Shown piece after piece: positions 47,543 through 54,760 of a stretch of DNA of 64,000 bases. The translations under genes and the position numbers were made by a program. Within the stretch, counting starts at the first letter, position 1, and each line of letters starts with the position of its first letter. The notes below the pieces were generated by a model. The model did not search any database and was not told where the DNA came from. It saw nothing but the letters and a program-made list of their open reading frames with translations. This DNA comes from an uncultured Collinsella sp. (GTDB lineage Bacteria > Actinomycetota > Coriobacteriia > Coriobacteriales > Coriobacteriaceae). The stretch covers positions 54,350-118,349 of the forward strand of contig UQLF01000002.1 in assembly GCA_900541875.1 (NCBI GenBank), read 5' to 3'.

Positions 47543-49789
47543 TTAGAAGTTGGCGTCGTTGAACTGGGTGCTCTCGAGTCCGTCGAGTTGCTGTTCGGGT
47601 GTATCGGCGACGCTCTCGAGCAGCTCGGTGGGATCGACGTTCATGCTCTTGCCGGCCTCGTTGCCGTTGACCAAGTCGTCCGAGAAGATGTCGACCTCCA
47701 TTTCCTCGGCCTCTTCGATCTGAACCTCGAGCGGCACCTGGGTGCGCACAAGTTTGACGGCCGGGCGCATGCGGGCAAAGAGCGGTACGTACTCAATGAT
47801 GATGGCCGAGTTCTCGAGACCGTACCAGCGTGCCGGGCTTCCGCAGGCGCGGCGGACGGCGTACTTGATGGCCATCACGCGGTGGTCATTGCGGTTGATG
47901 TCCGTTTCGGGGGCAAGCATCTTACGCAGCATGCAAAAGCGGAAGTCACCTACGTTGCCGCGCGTCTCGTAGATGGAGTAGGTGTGATGTTGCGGCGGCA
48001 GCTCGCCCGATGCCATCAAGTCGCCAACGATCTGACGCAGATAAGCGTTGACGCGTTGGTTGACTTTAAAGCCCAGGTCCAGGCGCACGCGGAATAAAAA
48101 GTCCGTGCCAAAGGTCTCGACGGAATACTCGTGCGTATAGGGTTCGTCGGTAACGTGCACGTTGATGAACCAATATGCCTTGGCGCGCTTGGGATGTTTG
48201 TCTAGGATGGAATAGAGCACGTCGCGGTCGAGCGTGAGCGGATCGGGGCTGTTGGTGAGGAACACCAGGTTGTCGGCGAGCACGGGGTAGGTCTCGTCGT
48301 TGCGCAGGCGGTTGAGCTGATCGATGTACTTGGAGACGGGCAGCAGGATCGTCTGCGTGCGCTCGATGGCGGTGCCGCGGCGCCACACGTACATAAGGCC
48401 AAACAGCAGTGCGGCCAAGAAGATCATCACATAGCCGCCGTCAAAGAACATGGTGAGGCACGAGGCGAAGAAGCACAGCTCGATGGCACCAAAGAGCAGG
48501 GCGAAGACGCAGGCACCCAGCCTGTGCTTGAGGATGCCGGCGATGTAGCTCGTCAAAAGCGTCGTGGTCATGAGCATGGTCACGGTAATGGCGAGGCCGT
48601 AGGCGCTCTCCATGCGCTCGGAGTTTTGGAACAGCAGCACGATGAAGATGCAGCCGACCCACATGATGTTGTTGACGAGCGGAATATAGAGCTGCCCCTT
48701 GGTGTCGCTGGGGTAGTGGATGCGCAGATGCGGCATAAGGTTGAGACGCGTTGCCTCGGATACCAGCGAGAACGAGCCGGTGATGAGCGCCTGCGAGGCA
48801 ATGATGGCCGCCACGGCCGAAAGCACGATGGCAAAGGGGCGCAGGGGCTCAGGAAGCATCATATAGAACGGGTTGACGATATCCATCGCGAGCATCTGGG
48901 GATTGGAATTGTTGGCGAGCAGCCAAGCGCCCTGACCCAGATAGTTAAGGATGAGGGCCGCCTTTACGAACGGCCAGGATGCGTAAATGTTAGCCTTGCC
49001 CACGTGACCCATGTCCGAATAGAGCGCCTCGGCGCCGGTCGTCGACAGGAAGACGAAGCCGAGCACCATGATGCCCGAGTGGTTGATGGGCGAGAACAGG
49101 AACATGATGCCGCGGATGGGGTTGAGCGCGCGCAGGATGGACAGGTTGCCGAGCATGTTGAACAGGCCGGCGCCAGCCAAGAACAGGAACCACAGCGTCA
49201 TAAGCGGGCCGAACAGCTTGCCGATTGACGAGGTGCCGGCGCGCTGCATGGCAAACAGGCCGCAGATAATGATGATGGTGATGATGATGACGTTGGTCTG
49301 GCCGTCACCCAAAAGCGCATGGCCCCACTCGATAGTGCGCAAGCCCTCGATGGCCGTGGTAACCGTGACGGCGGGGGTGAGGATGCCGTCGGCGAGCAGC
49401 GCCGCGCCGCCGATCATGGCGGGGAGAATCAGCCATGGCGCCACCTTGCGCACGAGACTGAACAGGGCGAAGATGCCGCCTTCGTTGTGGTTGTCGGCCT
49501 TCATGGCGATTACCACGTACTTGACCGTGGTCACGAGCGTCATGGTCCAGATGACGAGCGAAAGCGCGCCCAGGATCATGTCCTCGCTGACGGTACCGAT
49601 GCCGCCGTTGTTGGCGACGATTGATTTCATGGTGTACATGGGGCTCGTGCCGATGTCGCCATAGACGACGCCGAGCGTTACGAGCAGCATGCCAGCGGAG
49701 AGGGGGATGGCTCCGTGCCCGCCTTGCCCGCGCTGGTCTTGGAGGTTTGCCTCCAGTTTGTTGTGTGCCACGAGGACTCCCTTAGACAT
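47543..49789 (-). CDS. kup: KUP/HAK/KT family potassium transporter
   Basis: Signature LGVVYGDIGTSPMY. About 12 TM helices plus a cytoplasmic C-domain. 748 aa. Confidence 0.9.
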   Translation of the reverse strand: MSKGVLVAHNKLEANLQDQRGQGGHGAIPLSAGMLLVTLGVVYGDIGTSPMYTMKSIVANNGGIGTVSEDMILGALSLVIWTMTLVTTVKYVVIAMKADNHNEGGIFALFSLVRKVAPWLILPAMIGGAALLADGILTPAVTVTTAIEGLRTIEWGHALLGDGQTNVIIITIIIICGLFAMQRAGTSSIGKLFGPLMTLWFLFLAGAGLFNMLGNLSILRALNPIRGIMFLFSPINHSGIMVLGFVFLSTTGAEALYSDMGHVGKANIYASWPFVKAALILNYLGQGAWLLANNSNPQMLAMDIVNPFYMMLPEPLRPFAIVLSAVAAIIASQALITGSFSLVSEATRLNLMPHLRIHYPSDTKGQLYIPLVNNIMWVGCIFIVLLFQNSERMESAYGLAITVTMLMTTTLLTSYIAGILKHRLGACVFALLFGAIELCFFASCLTMFFDGGYVMIFLAALLFGLMYVWRRGTAIERTQTILLPVSKYIDQLNRLRNDETYPVLADNLVFLTNSPDPLTLDRDVLYSILDKHPKRAKAYWFINVHVTDEPYTHEYSVETFGTDFLFRVRLDLGFKVNQRVNAYLRQIVGDLMASGELPPQHHTYSIYETRGNVGDFRFCMLRKMLAPETDINRNDHRVMAIKYAVRRACGSPARWYGLENSAIIIEYVPLFARMRPAVKLVRTQVPLEVQIEEAEEMEVDIFSDDLVNGNEAGKSMNVDPTELLESVADTPEQQLDGLESTQFNDANF

Positions 49790-49928: not shown

Positions 49929-50840
49929 TTAAGCACGTACTGTCTGGGCGATGCCAGCCTTGGCGTTTGCGCGTTTGCCGGCGAGTTCGCAAAAAATCGC
50001 GCCGCCGATGATAAGCGCGGCGCCCATCAGACGGACCGGTGTTATGGCTTCGCCCAAAAGGACGGCCGAGAACACGACCGCCGAAAGCGGCTCGAGGTAG
50101 CCGACGACGGCGACGGTCTGGACGGACAGCTTGGCGACGGCGCTAAAGTAGAGCAGGCAACCAATGCCGGTGTTGACGACGCCGAGCATAGCGACGGCGC
50201 GCCAATCAATACTGGCGGCGATACCGGCGGACAGGAATGAGGGAGCGCCCTGCGTGATGAGCGTGAGGACCAGTGCGGTCACAAAGGCGGCGCTCACCTG
50301 GAGCGCGGAGTTCTCGAGGCCCTCGATGTGCGGCGCACCCTTGCTGGCGATGACCATCAATGCATAGCAGAAGGCCGAGGCGATTCCACAGACGATGCCC
50401 GCAATGGGCATATTGCCGCCTAGACCTTGCGCTGCAATGAGAAAAGCACCGCAGGCGACGGCGACAAAGCCGGCGATTTTGCCGCCGGTCAGCTTTTCGC
50501 CAAAGATGAGCGGGGAGAGTGCCATGACAATGATGGGGCCGCAGTAGTACAGCAGCGAGGATACGCCGACGCCGATCGTCTGGTAGGCGCGGAACAGAAA
50601 AATCCAGCTGGCGCCCAGCGCAGCTCCCGAGAGAAGGAGGGCCGCGGCTTCGCGGGGACGAGATGGCGCCTGCAGTTTATGGTGTTGGGTGATGGCGAGG
50701 ATAGTGACAAGCGAGAGGGCGCCCAAAAACGTGCGTAGCAGCACGATATCGGAGCTCGGCAGCGCGATGGCAGCGGCGATGATGCCGTTGGAGCCAAACA
50801 ATAGCAATGCTGCTAAGTACGTAAACAGTCCGTTGTCCAT
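49929..50840 (-). CDS. EamA/DMT family transporter
   Basis: 10-TM protein with duplicated EamA halves. Confidence 0.8.
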   Translation of the reverse strand: MDNGLFTYLAALLLFGSNGIIAAAIALPSSDIVLLRTFLGALSLVTILAITQHHKLQAPSRPREAAALLLSGAALGASWIFLFRAYQTIGVGVSSLLYYCGPIIVMALSPLIFGEKLTGGKIAGFVAVACGAFLIAAQGLGGNMPIAGIVCGIASAFCYALMVIASKGAPHIEGLENSALQVSAAFVTALVLTLITQGAPSFLSAGIAASIDWRAVAMLGVVNTGIGCLLYFSAVAKLSVQTVAVVGYLEPLSAVVFSAVLLGEAITPVRLMGAALIIGGAIFCELAGKRANAKAGIAQTVRA

Positions 50841-50958: not shown

Positions 50959-51816
50959 GTGGAAACGAATATTCAAAAGATGCAGGTGCTGCTGGAGACG
51001 GTGCGCGCCGGAAGCTTTACGCGTGCTGCCGAGCGGTTGAGCTATTCGCAGTCGGGCGTGAGCCGTATGGTGGCCGATCTTGAGGCCGACTGGGGTTTTA
51101 AGGTGCTCGATAGAAGCCGCGAGGGCGTAGTGCTTTCTGCCGATGGGCGGCAAGTTATGCCGGCGATCGAGGCGTTATGCGAGGAATTTGTTCGTTTGCA
51201 GCGACGGGTGGATGAGATGCGTGGACTCATGCGCGGCAAAATCTGCATCGGTACGTTTTCGAGTGTGGCGACCCACGTGCTGCCGCCGGTGATTGCGCGC
51301 TTTCGCGCCGATCATCCGGATGTCGATTACGAGCTGCTGATGGGTGATTACTCCGAGATTGAGCAATGGGTGGCGGAAGGCCGCTGCGACCTGGGCTTTA
51401 TCCCGCGTGAGCCCCGAGAAAACGGCATGGCATCGCGGTCTTTGGTGCGCGACGAGTTGATGGCGGTAGTGCCGGCAGGTTCTTTGCTTGCCACGGCGGA
51501 GGTCGTTTCTCTTGCCGATTTAGCCAACGAGCAGTTTATTCTGCTAGAACGCGGCACCGATGACGAGATTACGCCGCTGTTCCGTCGGGCGGGGCTGACG
51601 GTGTGCTCCAAGCTGTCGACCTGGGATGACTATGCGATTATGGCTATGGTCGAGGACGGCCTGGGTGTGAGCATTCTTCCCGCGCTCATCTTGCGCCGTT
51701 GCCAGTTCGATGTTGCCGTGCGTTCGCTCGAGGGACATCCCCATCGGCAGATCAACGCCATATATCGAACGGCCGATGTTTCACTTGCTGCCGCCCGTTT
51801 CCTCGAATACCTCTAA
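50959..51816 (+). CDS. LysR family transcriptional regulator
   Basis: HTH GSFTRAAERLSYSQSGVSRMVADLE. Confidence 0.85.
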   Translation: METNIQKMQVLLETVRAGSFTRAAERLSYSQSGVSRMVADLEADWGFKVLDRSREGVVLSADGRQVMPAIEALCEEFVRLQRRVDEMRGLMRGKICIGTFSSVATHVLPPVIARFRADHPDVDYELLMGDYSEIEQWVAEGRCDLGFIPREPRENGMASRSLVRDELMAVVPAGSLLATAEVVSLADLANEQFILLERGTDDEITPLFRRAGLTVCSKLSTWDDYAIMAMVEDGLGVSILPALILRRCQFDVAVRSLEGHPHRQINAIYRTADVSLAAARFLEYL

Positions 51817-51840
51817 ACGCGTACACGCTATTGTCCGCTT

Positions 51841-51967
51841 TGGACAAATCTCGGAGTCCGGTACATTTTCTTATGAAATTGAACTATCGAATGAGGTGCC
51901 GCGTTATACTGCTTGCTAAATTGAACCATGGTTCAATTCGTGTTCTATAAATTGAACTTTGCCAGCA
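51841..51967 (+). promoter_or_regulatory. candidate promoter/operator: dyad TTGTCCgctttGGACAA, three AAATTGAAC boxes including the palindrome AATTGAACCATGGTTCAATT, and -35 TTGAAC / -10 TATAAAT
   Basis: Repeats at 51886-51894, 51929-51948 and 51958-51967. They lie directly upstream of the XRE-HTH/aminotransferase gene. Confidence 0.5.
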
Positions 51968-51978
51968 AGGAGGTTCTA

Positions 51979-53499
51979 GTGGCCCAAGAGACGTTTAGCG
52001 ATCGCCTGCGACAGGCTATGTCCGATCGCGACGTTCGCCAGTCGGACGTGATCCGCGCATCGGAGATGCTCGGCAAAAAACTCGGCAAGAGTCAGATGAG
52101 CCAATATGTGAGCGGCAAGACGATCCCGCGGCGCGATGTGGCCGAGCTGCTCGCCCGTATTTTGGAGGTCGATGTTACCTGGCTGCTTGCCGGCGACGCC
52201 GATCAAGGCGAGGCATCATCACCCCGCAAGGATTCCAAGCCCGAACCCCATCCCTCAGCTCAAATTGCAAGGAGCACCACCATGCGTACTTTTTCTAAAT
52301 CCACCAAACTCGACAACGTCCTGTATGACGTGCGCGGTCCCGTCGTCGACGAGGCCGCCCGTATGGAGGACGAGGGCGAGCGCATCCTCAAGCTCAATAT
52401 CGGCAACCCGGCGCCCTTCGGTTTCCGCACGCCCGATGAGGTCATCAAGGACATGCGCCAGCAGCTGCCCGACTGCGAAGGCTATTCCAACTCGCGTGGC
52501 CTGTTCTCCGCGCGCAAGGCGATCATGCAGTATTCGCAGATCAAGGGCCTGCCCAACGTTCAGATGGAGCATATCTACACGGGCAACGGCGTGTCCGAGC
52601 TCATTCAGCTTTCGATGAACGCGCTGCTCGACAATGGCGACGAGATCCTGATTCCCAGTCCCGACTATCCGCTCTGGACGGCGTGCGCAACCCTTGCCGG
52701 CGGTCATCCCGTACATTATCTGTGTGACGAGCAGGCGGATTGGTATCCCGACCTGGAGGATATGGAGTCCAAGATTACGAGTGCGACCAAAGCCCTCGTC
52801 ATCATCAACCCAAACAACCCCACGGGTTCCGTCTATCCGCGCGAGGTGCTCGAGGGCATCGTCGAGATTGCACGCAGGCATCAGCTGATGATCTTTGCCG
52901 ATGAGATCTACGACCGCCTGTGCATGGACGGCTACGAGCACGTCTCGATTGCCTCGCTCGCCCCCGACCTGCCCTGCGTTACCTTTAGCGGTCTGTCCAA
53001 GTCGCACATGATTGCAGGCTATCGTATTGGCTGGATGGTGCTTTCGGGCAACCAGCGCTGCATGAGCGACTTCATCATGGGCGTCAACATGCTCTCGAAC
53101 ATGCGCCTGTGCTCCAACGTGCCGGCTCAGTCGATCGTTCAGACGGCACTCGGTGGCCATCAGTCGGTCAACGACTACATCCGTCCCGGCGGCCGTGTCT
53201 ACGAGCAGCGCAACTTTGTGTATGAGGCGCTCAACAAGATTGACGGCATCTCGGTGGTTAAGCCGCGTGCGGCGTTCTACATCTTCCCCAAGATGGATGT
53301 TAAAAAGTTCAACATCACCGATGACGAGCAATTCGCCCTTGACCTGCTGCACGAGAAGAAGATCCTGATTACGCGCGGCGGCGGCTTCAACTGGGCTGAG
53401 CCCGACCACTTCCGCATCGTGTACCTGCCGCGCATGGAAGTGCTCAAAGAGTCGCTCGAAGACCTCGCCGATTTCTTTGACCATTACCGCCAGGCGTAA
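51979..53499 (+). CDS. XRE-type HTH domain fused in-frame, through a disordered linker, to an AlaA-type class I aminotransferase. An internal RBS+ATG at 52282 could also produce the stand-alone aminotransferase.
   Basis: GTG start at 51979 after AAGGAGG. HTH FSDRLRQAMSDRDVRQSDVIRASEMLGKKLGKSQMSQYVSGKTIP. Linker ADQGEASSPRKDSKPEPHPSAQIARSTT. Then MRTFSKSTKLDNVLYDVRGPV...LNIGNPAPFGF...SGLSKSHMIAGYRIGW, collinear with E. coli AlaA. No stop codon lies between the domains. Confidence 0.7.
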   Translation: MAQETFSDRLRQAMSDRDVRQSDVIRASEMLGKKLGKSQMSQYVSGKTIPRRDVAELLARILEVDVTWLLAGDADQGEASSPRKDSKPEPHPSAQIARSTTMRTFSKSTKLDNVLYDVRGPVVDEAARMEDEGERILKLNIGNPAPFGFRTPDEVIKDMRQQLPDCEGYSNSRGLFSARKAIMQYSQIKGLPNVQMEHIYTGNGVSELIQLSMNALLDNGDEILIPSPDYPLWTACATLAGGHPVHYLCDEQADWYPDLEDMESKITSATKALVIINPNNPTGSVYPREVLEGIVEIARRHQLMIFADEIYDRLCMDGYEHVSIASLAPDLPCVTFSGLSKSHMIAGYRIGWMVLSGNQRCMSDFIMGVNMLSNMRLCSNVPAQSIVQTALGGHQSVNDYIRPGGRVYEQRNFVYEALNKIDGISVVKPRAAFYIFPKMDVKKFNITDDEQFALDLLHEKKILITRGGGFNWAEPDHFRIVYLPRMEVLKESLEDLADFFDHYRQA

Positions 53500-53516
53500 C
53501 GGCAAAGGTAGCCTGT

Positions 53517-53560
53517 AATGAAACGGTCGGCCCGCAACGGATGCGGGCCGACCGTTTTCT
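53517..53560 (+). terminator. intrinsic terminator
   Basis: AAACGGTCGGCCCGC-aacggat-GCGGGCCGACCGTTTTCTG. Confidence 0.8.
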
Positions 53561-53725
53561 GTCTAAGCCCGTGCTGTTAGCGCTTGTCTCGTTGAGCGGG
53601 CGAGGTTCGCGTGTGAGCGGTAAGTTCTATTCCAAAATGGAATACAGTGGGCTTAAGCTGGAATTGATGTCCGGGTACCTGCTTTTCTAGAATGTTTTCA
53701 ACAAGATGAAAGGCGGTTCCAACCA

Positions 53726-54760
53726 ATGATTATCGATGCAAATTCCTACTGGTTCGACGAGCGCATCTTTCATGACGAGACGCTCTGCGAACAGTTTTTG
53801 GCCGAGGTACCCCGCGCCTATGACACCGAAGGCTATCTGACCATGAATTCCGCCGGCAAACGACAGATCGTGATCGAGATGCCCGCCGGTTCTCCGGGTC
53901 TTAACTACATTGAGGGCGACTACACCCTCGAGAAGCGCTTGGCCGATATGGATGAGGCGGGGGTCGACAAGGCGATCCTCAAGCTCCCCGGCTGTCACGA
54001 GTGGATGTCGCTCGAGATGTGCCGGCGTTTCAACGACGGTATGGCTGCTGACGCGAAGGCGTCAAGTGGCCGTCTGATTCCGCTTGTCGCTGTGCCGCCC
54101 TTTGGCACCAAAGCAAATTTGGAGGAGCTCGACCGCAGGCTCGACGATGGTTTTGCGGGTGTGCAGCTCTGCGCTCACTACGGCAAGCGCTATCTCGACG
54201 ACCAGGTCTTCTCGAGTTTTTTCGAGCACCTGAACGAACGCCATGTCACCGTTTACGTGCACCATGTTCCCGTGCCGGTCGAGAACGAGTCGCTTCTCGC
54301 GTACGACAACCTTCGCCGCTCTTATGGCCGCTGCGTCGACCAAACTACGGCGATCGGCCGAGAGATCTTTGGCGATTTCTTTGAGCGCTACCCCAATATC
54401 AAGATGGTCCACTCCATGCTCGGTGGCGCTTATTTTGCGTTTAAGGAGATGCTGCTGCCGCACGGTCCCAAGCGTCCAGATGCCTCGGGTCGCTTCCAGA
54501 CCGATACCGAGACGGTCTCCAAGCGTCTTGAGAACAACGTTTATTTCGACATGTCTCATGCTCAGCCTTGGGGCGAGACGCTTCTTGCCTGTGCGGTTGA
54601 AGTCCTTGGTGCAGACCATATTGTCTTTGGTACGAGTTATCCCGTTAAACGCGAGTGGCTAACAGAGGGTGTCGCCTGCGTCCGCGCCACAGATTTAAGT
54701 GATACGGACAAGGACCTTATGCTTGGCGGCACGGCACAGCGCTTGTACGGCATCGAGTGA
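53726..54760 (+). CDS. amidohydrolase-2 family (PF04909, ACMSD-like) metal-dependent hydrolase/decarboxylase
   Basis: TIM-barrel amidohydrolase blocks MIIDANSYWFDE, VYVHHVPVPVENE and IVFGTSYP. Confidence 0.75.
   Translation: MIIDANSYWFDERIFHDETLCEQFLAEVPRAYDTEGYLTMNSAGKRQIVIEMPAGSPGLNYIEGDYTLEKRLADMDEAGVDKAILKLPGCHEWMSLEMCRRFNDGMAADAKASSGRLIPLVAVPPFGTKANLEELDRRLDDGFAGVQLCAHYGKRYLDDQVFSSFFEHLNERHVTVYVHHVPVPVENESLLAYDNLRRSYGRCVDQTTAIGREIFGDFFERYPNIKMVHSMLGGAYFAFKEMLLPHGPKRPDASGRFQTDTETVSKRLENNVYFDMSHAQPWGETLLACAVEVLGADHIVFGTSYPVKREWLTEGVACVRATDLSDTDKDLMLGGTAQRLYGIE

Follow-up and report, generated by a model that had tools for sequence, protein, structure and literature searches.

What is a DNA-binding domain doing in the same reading frame as a metabolic enzyme? 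The question is raised by one gene in a 64,000-nucleotide stretch of DNA from an uncultured Collinsella sp. (GenBank assembly GCA_900541875.1, contig UQLF01000002.1, positions 54,350 to 118,349 of the forward strand), referred to here as the window and numbered from its first letter. A long open reading frame (ORF) on the + strand (51979–53499, stop codon included), delineated by ORF, domain and orthologue comparison, encodes a 506-residue protein in which a helix-turn-helix (HTH) domain of the XRE type, at the N-terminus, is joined by a linker to an aminotransferase of the AlaA type. A preliminary description of the window had proposed that this frame could yield both a long HTH-AlaA fusion and a stand-alone AlaA, and that the HTH controls its own gene. 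The fusion proves to be genuine and widespread, its head is a relative of the CI repressor of phage TP901-1, and a conserved set of half-site boxes accompanies the gene in distant lineages. We favour, with some reserve, a combined model in which the gene would encode an autorepressing ‘trigger enzyme’ together with a nested enzyme-only isoform.

One conserved gene

One explanation of such a fusion would be an artefact, two genes run together where an error in sequencing or assembly had deleted a stop codon, and a few database entries do contain a short HTH-only protein. Those entries, however, are contig-end fragments or come from a contig of 3.5x coverage whose genes are all split. Protein clusters of 497–543 residues, more than 120 in number, cover 100% of the query, and all 80 retained genome loci match it from residue 1–5 onward. 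The window belongs to the Collinsella aerofaciens group, with one genome locus (L001) 100% identical to the query. Across 30 divergent loci, the linker is hypervariable in sequence and 22–115 residues long, yet in frame throughout, with no stop or frameshift in any of them. A check of orthologues for a stop, a frameshift or a separate small XRE gene, which the preliminary description had called for, found no intact split. With the frame kept in hundreds of independent assemblies, isolate genomes among them, an assembly error or a pair of split genes was ruled out, and the probability left to an artefact is negligible.

Within the Coriobacteriia, the fusion is carried by Collinsella, Olsenella, Enorma, Atopobium and Slackia. 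At 66–71% identity, it is found in Lachnospiraceae (Blautia, Roseburia, Mediterraneibacter, Hespellia, Eisenbergiella), Oscillospiraceae, Ruminococcaceae and Acutalibacteraceae, and many Bifidobacterium species also encode an HTH-AlaA fusion. The family is present in very abundant human gut genera, namely Collinsella, Bifidobacterium, Blautia and Roseburia. The preliminary description had called the arrangement little-described, which holds for the literature, as full-text searches turned up no description of an XRE-HTH/AlaA fusion, but not for the architecture itself, which is widespread and already called as one long gene in RefSeq. The RefSeq name covers the enzyme only (‘aminotransferase class I/II-fold PLP-dependent enzyme’). 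A provisional CDD model, PRK13355, presumably exists under the name ‘bifunctional HTH-domain containing protein/aminotransferase’, in which case annotators have already come across the fusion as such. The operator, the promoter layout, the kinship with TP901-1 CI and the conserved internal start are undescribed in the literature searched; the finding is real and moderately surprising to specialists.

The start of the long form was placed by the preliminary description at the GTG at 51979, and both the coordinates and the choice of codon agree with the comparison, this being the start matched by all orthologues. It is preceded on the + strand by the Shine-Dalgarno (SD) sequence AAGGAGG (51967–51973) at a 5-nt spacer, and orthologues likewise have SD-like sequences ahead of their first start. 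Formally, the frame is already open from an ATG at 51928, which arises from the CATG centre of a 20-bp palindrome described below; that start is not conserved in 49 Collinsella genomes and would add 17 residues unshared by any genus outside Collinsella. The gene ends with a TAA stop at 53497–53499.

A CI-type head on an AlaA-type enzyme

The proposed order of HTH, low-complexity linker and full AlaA-type enzyme in one frame is borne out, with lengths of 72, about 29 and 405 residues. The HTH domain (aa 1–72; 51979–52194, + strand) is a five-helix domain of the TP901-1 CI N-terminal-domain (NTD) type, as assigned by sequence profiles, AlphaFold2 (AF2), Foldseek and PHROGs. A profile search of the PDB matched it to the TP901-1 CI NTD at E-values from 2e-14 to 4e-13. 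The AF2 model of residues 1–72 contains five helices at a predicted local distance difference test (pLDDT) score of about 90, and the top four Foldseek matches of this predicted domain were all TP901-1 CI NTD (36% identity, root-mean-square deviation 2.0 Å). These are the entries of the profile search, among them 3ZHM, a complex with an operator half-site. Further Foldseek matches included P22 c2, DdrO, ImmR, SinR and the 434 repressor, and PHROG repressor families matched the head at 3e-14. Pfam HTH_31 and HTH_3 match residues 6–69 below their gathering scores, and many orthologues have precomputed PF01381/PF13560 matches. By sequence profile and by fold, the head is XRE/cI-type, and its nearest solved relative is the TP901-1 CI NTD.

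The recognition helix of the head reads KSQMSQYVSGK, with Q42 invariant, and the invariant residues across the fusion family are LGKSQ.SQYVSGK..PR. The corresponding helices compare as KSTLSQYVN in TP901-1 CI and KSQMSQYVS in the fusion; Q45 of the phage protein aligns with the invariant Q42, and N48 with the invariant S45. DNA binding is impaired in the TP901-1 CI double mutant Q45A/N48A (PMC11149083).

Stand-alone relatives of the HTH were sought among 1.84 billion representatives. The top single-domain matches, read back, were broken copies of the fusion, with the exception of P0187 (254 aa), an HTH relative with a different C-terminal part; the use of 50%-identity cluster representatives probably hides full-length fusions in this search. 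The search also brought up proteins built of 4–8 tandem CI-like HTH copies related to the fused head: P0163 (640 aa), P0248 (850 aa), P0195 and P0229. P0163 is G+C-rich and actinobacterial-looking, and has seven HTH repeats with short acidic linkers between them.

The linker (aa 73–101; 52195–52281, + strand) is of low complexity and predicted to be disordered from AF2 confidence and alignment. Low confidence continues to about residue 119, inside the enzyme start. The full-length AF2 model is poor in the enzyme part (mean pLDDT 52) because its alignment is shallow, and only the confidence of the HTH and the linker is used here. The enzyme occupies residues 102–506, of which Pfam Aminotran_1_2 covers residues 136–485 (2e-54; 185.6 bits against a cut-off of 19.7). 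The claim that it is collinear with E. coli AlaA from Met1 can be stated exactly: the product read from the ATG at 52282 and AlaA are both 405 residues long and align without a gap from Met1 to the C-terminus at 57.8% identity, and the PDB entry of AlaA, 4CVQ, is matched at E 1e-165. The lysine of the SGLSKS motif, K341, is invariant in 21 sequences and aligns to the SK of E. coli AlaA; it corresponds to the lysine that in this family binds pyridoxal 5'-phosphate (PLP). The NCBIfam equivalog for alanine aminotransferase, NF006230, was not reached (342 bits against a cut-off of 534); it models a different alanine aminotransferase lineage, and the assignment of substrate specificity is therefore drawn solely from similarity to E. 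coli AlaA. On this similarity, the enzyme is AlaA-type (glutamate-pyruvate), a putative alanine/glutamate transaminase.

A putative operator built of half-site boxes

The three boxes and the palindrome that the preliminary description reported upstream of the gene are present, and the 20-bp palindrome at 51919–51938 is perfect. Four boxes can be distinguished. Box 1 (AAATTGAACTAT, or AGTTCAAT on the opposite strand; 51876–51887, + strand) falls on the -35 region and stands 20 nt upstream of the -10 hexamer. Box 2 (AAATTGAACCAT; 51918–51929, + strand) is the left half of the palindrome and extends from about +2 of the inferred start site, and box 3 (51928–51939, - strand), identified from the motif and from strain comparison, is a reverse copy (GAATTGAACCAT on the - strand) that forms the right half. 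Box 4 (AAATTGAACTTT; 51949–51960, + strand) falls in the 5' untranslated region (UTR), just before the SD. The distance is 42 bp from box 1 to box 2 and 31 bp from box 2 to box 4. Exact copies of AAATTGAAC begin at 51876, 51918 and 51949, with one reverse copy at 51931–51939, and the 64 kb hold only one further exact copy; the region upstream of the gene is the sole cluster of TTGAAC/GTTCAA sites in the window.

The same boxes recur upstream of orthologues in every lineage examined, Bifidobacterium included. The upstream sequences of the 30 divergent loci (220 nt each, 6.6 kb in all) contain 121 copies of TTGAAC/GTTCAA, or 18.3 per kb, against 0.51 per kb over the remaining 212 kb of the same loci, an enrichment of 36-fold. 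Counted as AGTTCA/TGAACT, the sites are denser in the 220 nt upstream of the gene than in any other window of the locus, in all 30 loci, and the box consensus over these loci is aaaTTGAACTtt. No TGAAC box lies upstream of E. coli alaA, which is unfused. Within Collinsella, the boxes and the -10 hexamer TATACT are invariant across 49 genomes while the spacers drift, and the 4-nt centre of the palindrome differs among strains (CATG, CTTG, TCAG and others). The conserved unit of the operator is the half-site box and not the full palindrome. Distances between neighbouring boxes cluster near 10, 20, 31 and 42 bp, in phase with the DNA helix, with a Rayleigh p of ~1e-9 at a period of 10.5–11 bp that is optimistic because the loci are related. 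Box orientation is mostly that of direct repeats in Firmicutes and mixed in Coriobacteriia, a variation that fits HTH heads carried on long flexible tethers.

The nearest solved homologue recognizes a related site. The half-site consensus of TP901-1 and phi13 CI is AGTTCAYR (PMC8516035, PMC4941734), mutation of its C abolishes CI binding (PMC8516035), and the TP901-1 OL operator reads AGTTCATGAAACGTGAACT (PMC4941734). Read on the opposite strand, as AGTTCAAT, the box of the fusion gene has the AGTTCA core in common with this half-site. Two independent lines lead to the same protein-DNA pair: box and HTH occur together across phyla, and the nearest solved homologue has the specificity just described. 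Autoregulation by the HTH, as the preliminary description had suggested, gains strong support from the footprint across three lineages and further support from the half-site of the homologue, and it is quite likely that the head binds the boxes directly and regulates its own gene.

A metagenome search with ATTGAACNNNNGTTCAAT looked for a regulon beyond this gene: the Collinsella-like matches listed were to the HTH-AlaA promoter only, and the other matches listed were unrelated environmental sequences. One metagenome contig of 34% GC (L143, 1170–1290), which encodes a 65%-identical fusion, has the boxes in a Collinsella-like layout with an everted palindrome of 4-nt centre (AAATTGAACCAAAGTTCAATTT) after a TATAAT, so that the whole promoter design, beyond the box alone, appears to travel with the gene. 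A 37%-GC environmental contig (L132, 1060–1135) was also noted, on which four TTGAAC/GTTCAA boxes, arranged as two everted palindromes (TTGAACTTATGTTCAA and TTGAACTTACGTTCAA), sit between two divergent small genes, for a 180-aa HTH/nucleotidyltransferase-like and a 90-aa HicB-like protein; these boxes may serve a different CI-like repressor as its operator, with no relation to alaA.

Predicted promoter layout

The preliminary description had the palindrome overlap a promoter formed by TTGAAC (51921–51926), a 19-nt spacer and TATAAA (51946–51951). This proposal did not hold, as TATAAA varies in some Collinsella genomes. The conserved -10 hexamer is instead TATACT (51905–51910, + strand), inferred from its match to the consensus and its conservation in the 49 Collinsella genomes, where it is invariant; it also fits the position of the extended -10 of other genera. 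A simple promoter scan picked up neither TATACT nor the TTGAAC/TATAAA pair. In orthologues, an extended -10 (TGnTAnnnT) stands at the matching position relative to the boxes in nearly all loci, with one box 24–31 nt upstream of the -10 end, a + strand box 8–15 nt downstream of it and further boxes up to the SD. In Firmicutes, the upstream TTGAAC is placed exactly 17 nt from the -10, and thus doubles as the -35 hexamer. A -10 at 51905–51910 predicts a start site near 51917, which gives the palindrome of the window a position of about +2 to +21 and puts box 4 into the 5' UTR. Judged from these positions, the layout would be that of a repressor.

The preliminary description had also counted a TTGTCC/GGACAA dyad among the operator elements. 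The dyad is real (TTGTCC-GCTTT-GGACAA, 51831–51847, 15 nt after the lysR stop) but absent from other genera, being confined to Collinsella, where it is 99% paired among 20 variants, with U-G wobbles on the + strand and one double change from G:C to A:U. This is the pairing pattern of a + strand RNA hairpin, and it suggests that the dyad forms a separate hairpin in the lysR transcript, at its 3' end, rather than a site for a protein; as a part of the operator it was rejected.

A probable nested start for the enzyme alone

Inside the long ORF, a nested ORF (52282–53499, stop codon included, + strand), recognized by domain content and alignment to AlaA, encodes the 405-aa AlaA-type aminotransferase alone. 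Its SD, AAGGAG (52269–52274, + strand), is embedded in the linker codons GCA-AGG-AGC, 7 nt from the ATG at 52282. In 27 of the 30 divergent loci, an ATG stands exactly at the start position of E. coli AlaA with a GGAG-type SD 6–10 nt upstream; the SD duplex in these 27 has a mean free energy of -8.4 kcal/mol and a median rank in the top 3.6% of the in-frame positions of the gene. Two further loci have an ATG five codons upstream with GAAGGGA, which brings an SD-like sequence with ATG to 29 of 30. The residues encoded over the SD vary (RS, GS, GG, GE, GD, EA) while the DNA retains GGAG, and in the ‘RS’ loci the arginine is always AGG, although AGG makes up 4.9% of Arg codons in these genes. Retention of GGAG in an otherwise variable linker points to selection on the nucleotide sequence, that is, to a working ribosome-binding site. 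The earlier proposal of two products, HTH-AlaA and stand-alone AlaA, is plausible on this conservation, and both starts are probably used. Gene annotation would then miss a conserved nested isoform.

In Bifidobacterium, L203 and L206, of one subclade, have Met changed to Arg before KSHKLDNV and no SD; other species of the genus (L205) keep the Met and an SD-like sequence. The contrast between them amounts to a natural experiment on whether the short isoform is needed.

A model for the gene and its alternatives

In the model that we favour, transcription from the promoter with the -10 TATACT would give one mRNA with two translation starts. From the GTG at 51979, ribosomes would make the 506-aa protein, consisting of a CI-like HTH, a flexible linker and a complete AlaA-type enzyme; from the ATG at 52282, whose SD lies within the linker codons, they would make just the enzyme of 405 residues. 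Aminotransferases of fold type I are obligate dimers. The enzyme body would thus replace the oligomerization domain of phage CI and present two tethered HTH heads, each of which would bind one AAATTGAACTTT (AGTTCAAT) box. Since the four boxes are spread across -35 region, start site and 5' UTR, their occupancy is proposed to block RNA polymerase, and the gene would repress itself; repression would be the outcome rather than activation. The enzyme-only isoform would supply activity without DNA binding, and long/short heterodimers, with one head each, may have a low affinity for the boxes and in this way adjust the strength of repression. DNA binding may further be modulated by the enzyme’s state with respect to substrate or cofactor, as it is by PLP-linked ligands in MocR/GabR. 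An enzyme and a DNA-binding domain share one polypeptide, and candidate operator sites are found computationally at its own promoter, both of which are marks of a trigger enzyme.

A number of observations weigh against this reading. The Pfam matches of the head score below gathering in the window protein (HTH_31 23.8 against 27, HTH_3 21.1 against 23). The last two positions of the box differ from those of the TP901-1 consensus, and the half-sites of the palindrome point outward (TGAAC..GTTCA), opposite to those of TP901-1 OL. The loci compared are related, and the statistics overstate their independence. One locus, L074, lacks both Met and SD at the internal-start position, and a Bifidobacterium subclade, which includes a cluster of 3265 members, reads RRRTF there, without internal Met or SD. 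This subclade still has the boxes, which suggests that the long form is itself a competent enzyme and that the short isoform, though widespread, is dispensable.

These losses lend themselves to another explanation, in which the long fusion is the only product and the internal SD and ATG are a functionless relic of the ancestral alaA start: L074 and the Bifidobacterium subclade evidently manage on the long form. A relic should decay, however, whereas GGAG and ATG are kept in 29 of 30 loci through different residues and rare codons, and we consider this explanation unlikely. A second alternative is a MocR-like division of labour, with the long form a regulator whose body serves as sensor and dimerizer and the short form the real enzyme. 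The aminotransferase fold of MocR/GabR can be a PLP-dependent sensor (PMC5320631), and a separate enzyme-only start is kept in most lineages. But both forms have the same aminotransferase sequence, with its 57.8% identity to an active enzyme, E. coli AlaA, and an invariant motif lysine, and lineages without the internal start would get no enzyme from the gene, which leaves such a division decidedly improbable. The boxes, finally, might be bound by another regulator, the fused HTH acting elsewhere or not on DNA at all. The likeness of TTGAAC to a -35 hexamer could account for a single copy in each promoter, but not for the 3–7 copies per locus, some of them downstream of the -10, nor for the extended consensus AAATTGAACTTT. 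Against this rival there also stand the co-occurrence of boxes and fusion in three distant lineages, their absence at the unfused alaA of E. coli, and the core common to the boxes and the site of the nearest solved homologue; it is very improbable.

The autorepressing trigger enzyme with a nested isoform can be carried further, to a speculative form that we put forward as a possibility on the doubtful side. The fusion would be an active counterpart of MocR, in which AlaA makes alanine and reports the alanine/pyruvate/glutamate pool, or that of PLP and pyridoxamine 5'-phosphate, to the heads. The short isoform would act as an anti-repressor through one-headed heterodimers, the ratio of the two starts would set the feedback, and the scheme would be common to Bifidobacterium, Collinsella and Lachnospiraceae.

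Comparison with known systems

Like the fusion, MocR, GabR and PdxR begin with a DNA-binding domain that a long linker connects to a dimerizing fold-type-I aminotransferase body, and their binding sites are half-sites repeated close to the promoters of related genes (PMC5320631). Their DNA-binding domain, however, is a GntR-type winged HTH, where that of the fusion is XRE/cI-type; their body is a diverged sensor, where the aminotransferase of the fusion is near-canonical AlaA; and, unlike them, most members of the fusion family also encode an enzyme-only isoform. Judged by its predicted domains, the fusion is not a member of the MocR family.

The trigger enzymes PutA (ribbon-helix-helix domain with proline dehydrogenase and pyrroline-5-carboxylate dehydrogenase) and BirA (winged HTH with biotin ligase) are active enzymes with an N-terminal DNA-binding domain of their own that repress their own or their pathway’s promoter, as is predicted for the fusion. 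The DNA-binding folds and the enzymes differ. Switching is driven by proline and membrane binding in PutA, and by biotinyl-AMP-driven dimerization in BirA; we know of no nested enzyme-only isoform in either. If the model is true, the few enzymes that regulate their own genes would gain, in the fusion, a third kind of DNA-binding head.

TP901-1 CI, like its counterpart in Staphylococcus aureus phi13, shares with the fusion a flexible linker to an oligomerizing body and multiple operators around the promoter. A helical C-terminal domain stands in the phage protein where the fusion has an enzyme, and the half-sites of the fusion gene are, unlike those of TP901-1 CI, variable in orientation and spacing. 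The fusion locus has no Mor antirepressor gene, no divergent PR/PL promoter pair and no prophage context; its setting is chromosomal and housekeeping, and it is not a phage lysogeny switch. It would be, if the model is true, a clean case of a phage-repressor domain recruited into housekeeping metabolism. Unlike the fusion, E. coli AlaA (YfbQ, PDB 4CVQ) has no HTH extension, and E. coli alaA is regulated by Lrp. Alanine aminotransferase stands at the junction of pyruvate, glutamate and alanine.

Nested isoforms made from in-frame internal starts are familiar from CheA-L/CheA-S, the 93- and 79-kDa forms of ClpB and the alpha and beta forms of IF2. As predicted for the fusion, the short form there is missing one functional module, at the N-terminus, and can enter oligomers together with the long form. 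The difference is that the module omitted in the fusion is a DNA-binding domain, so that the isoform ratio would set transcriptional feedback; to our knowledge, no other nested isoform arises by leaving out a DNA-binding domain that acts on its own gene. The model, which is open to direct test, puts forward AAATTGAACTTT as a candidate operator, together with a layout for the promoter and the prediction of two proteins.

Transcript end and neighbouring genes

An intrinsic terminator follows the gene on the + strand (53520–53563), with a GC-rich 17-bp stem, a 5-nt loop and UUUU, recognized by its folding energy: the 76-nt stretch that holds the hairpin folds at -40 kcal/mol (z = -4.95). With this terminator in place, the HTH-AlaA gene would be monocistronic. 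An Rfam scan of 51500–53800 returned nothing near threshold.

The fusion gene has genes for a LysR regulator and an EamA transporter on one side and for an amidohydrolase on the other. Upstream, a Kup-type K+ transporter (47543–49789) and the EamA-family transporter (49929–50840) are encoded on the - strand, and the divergent LysR regulator (50959–51816, + strand) ends 160 nt before the alaA start; EamA transporter and LysR are a typical regulator/exporter pair. This upstream synteny was seen in Collinsella (L081) and not in Bifidobacterium. Downstream, after the alaA terminator, the only sigma-70-like promoter match of the region (53664–53693; TTGATG, 18-nt spacer, TAGAAT) directly precedes an ORF of the Amidohydro_2 family at 53726–54760.

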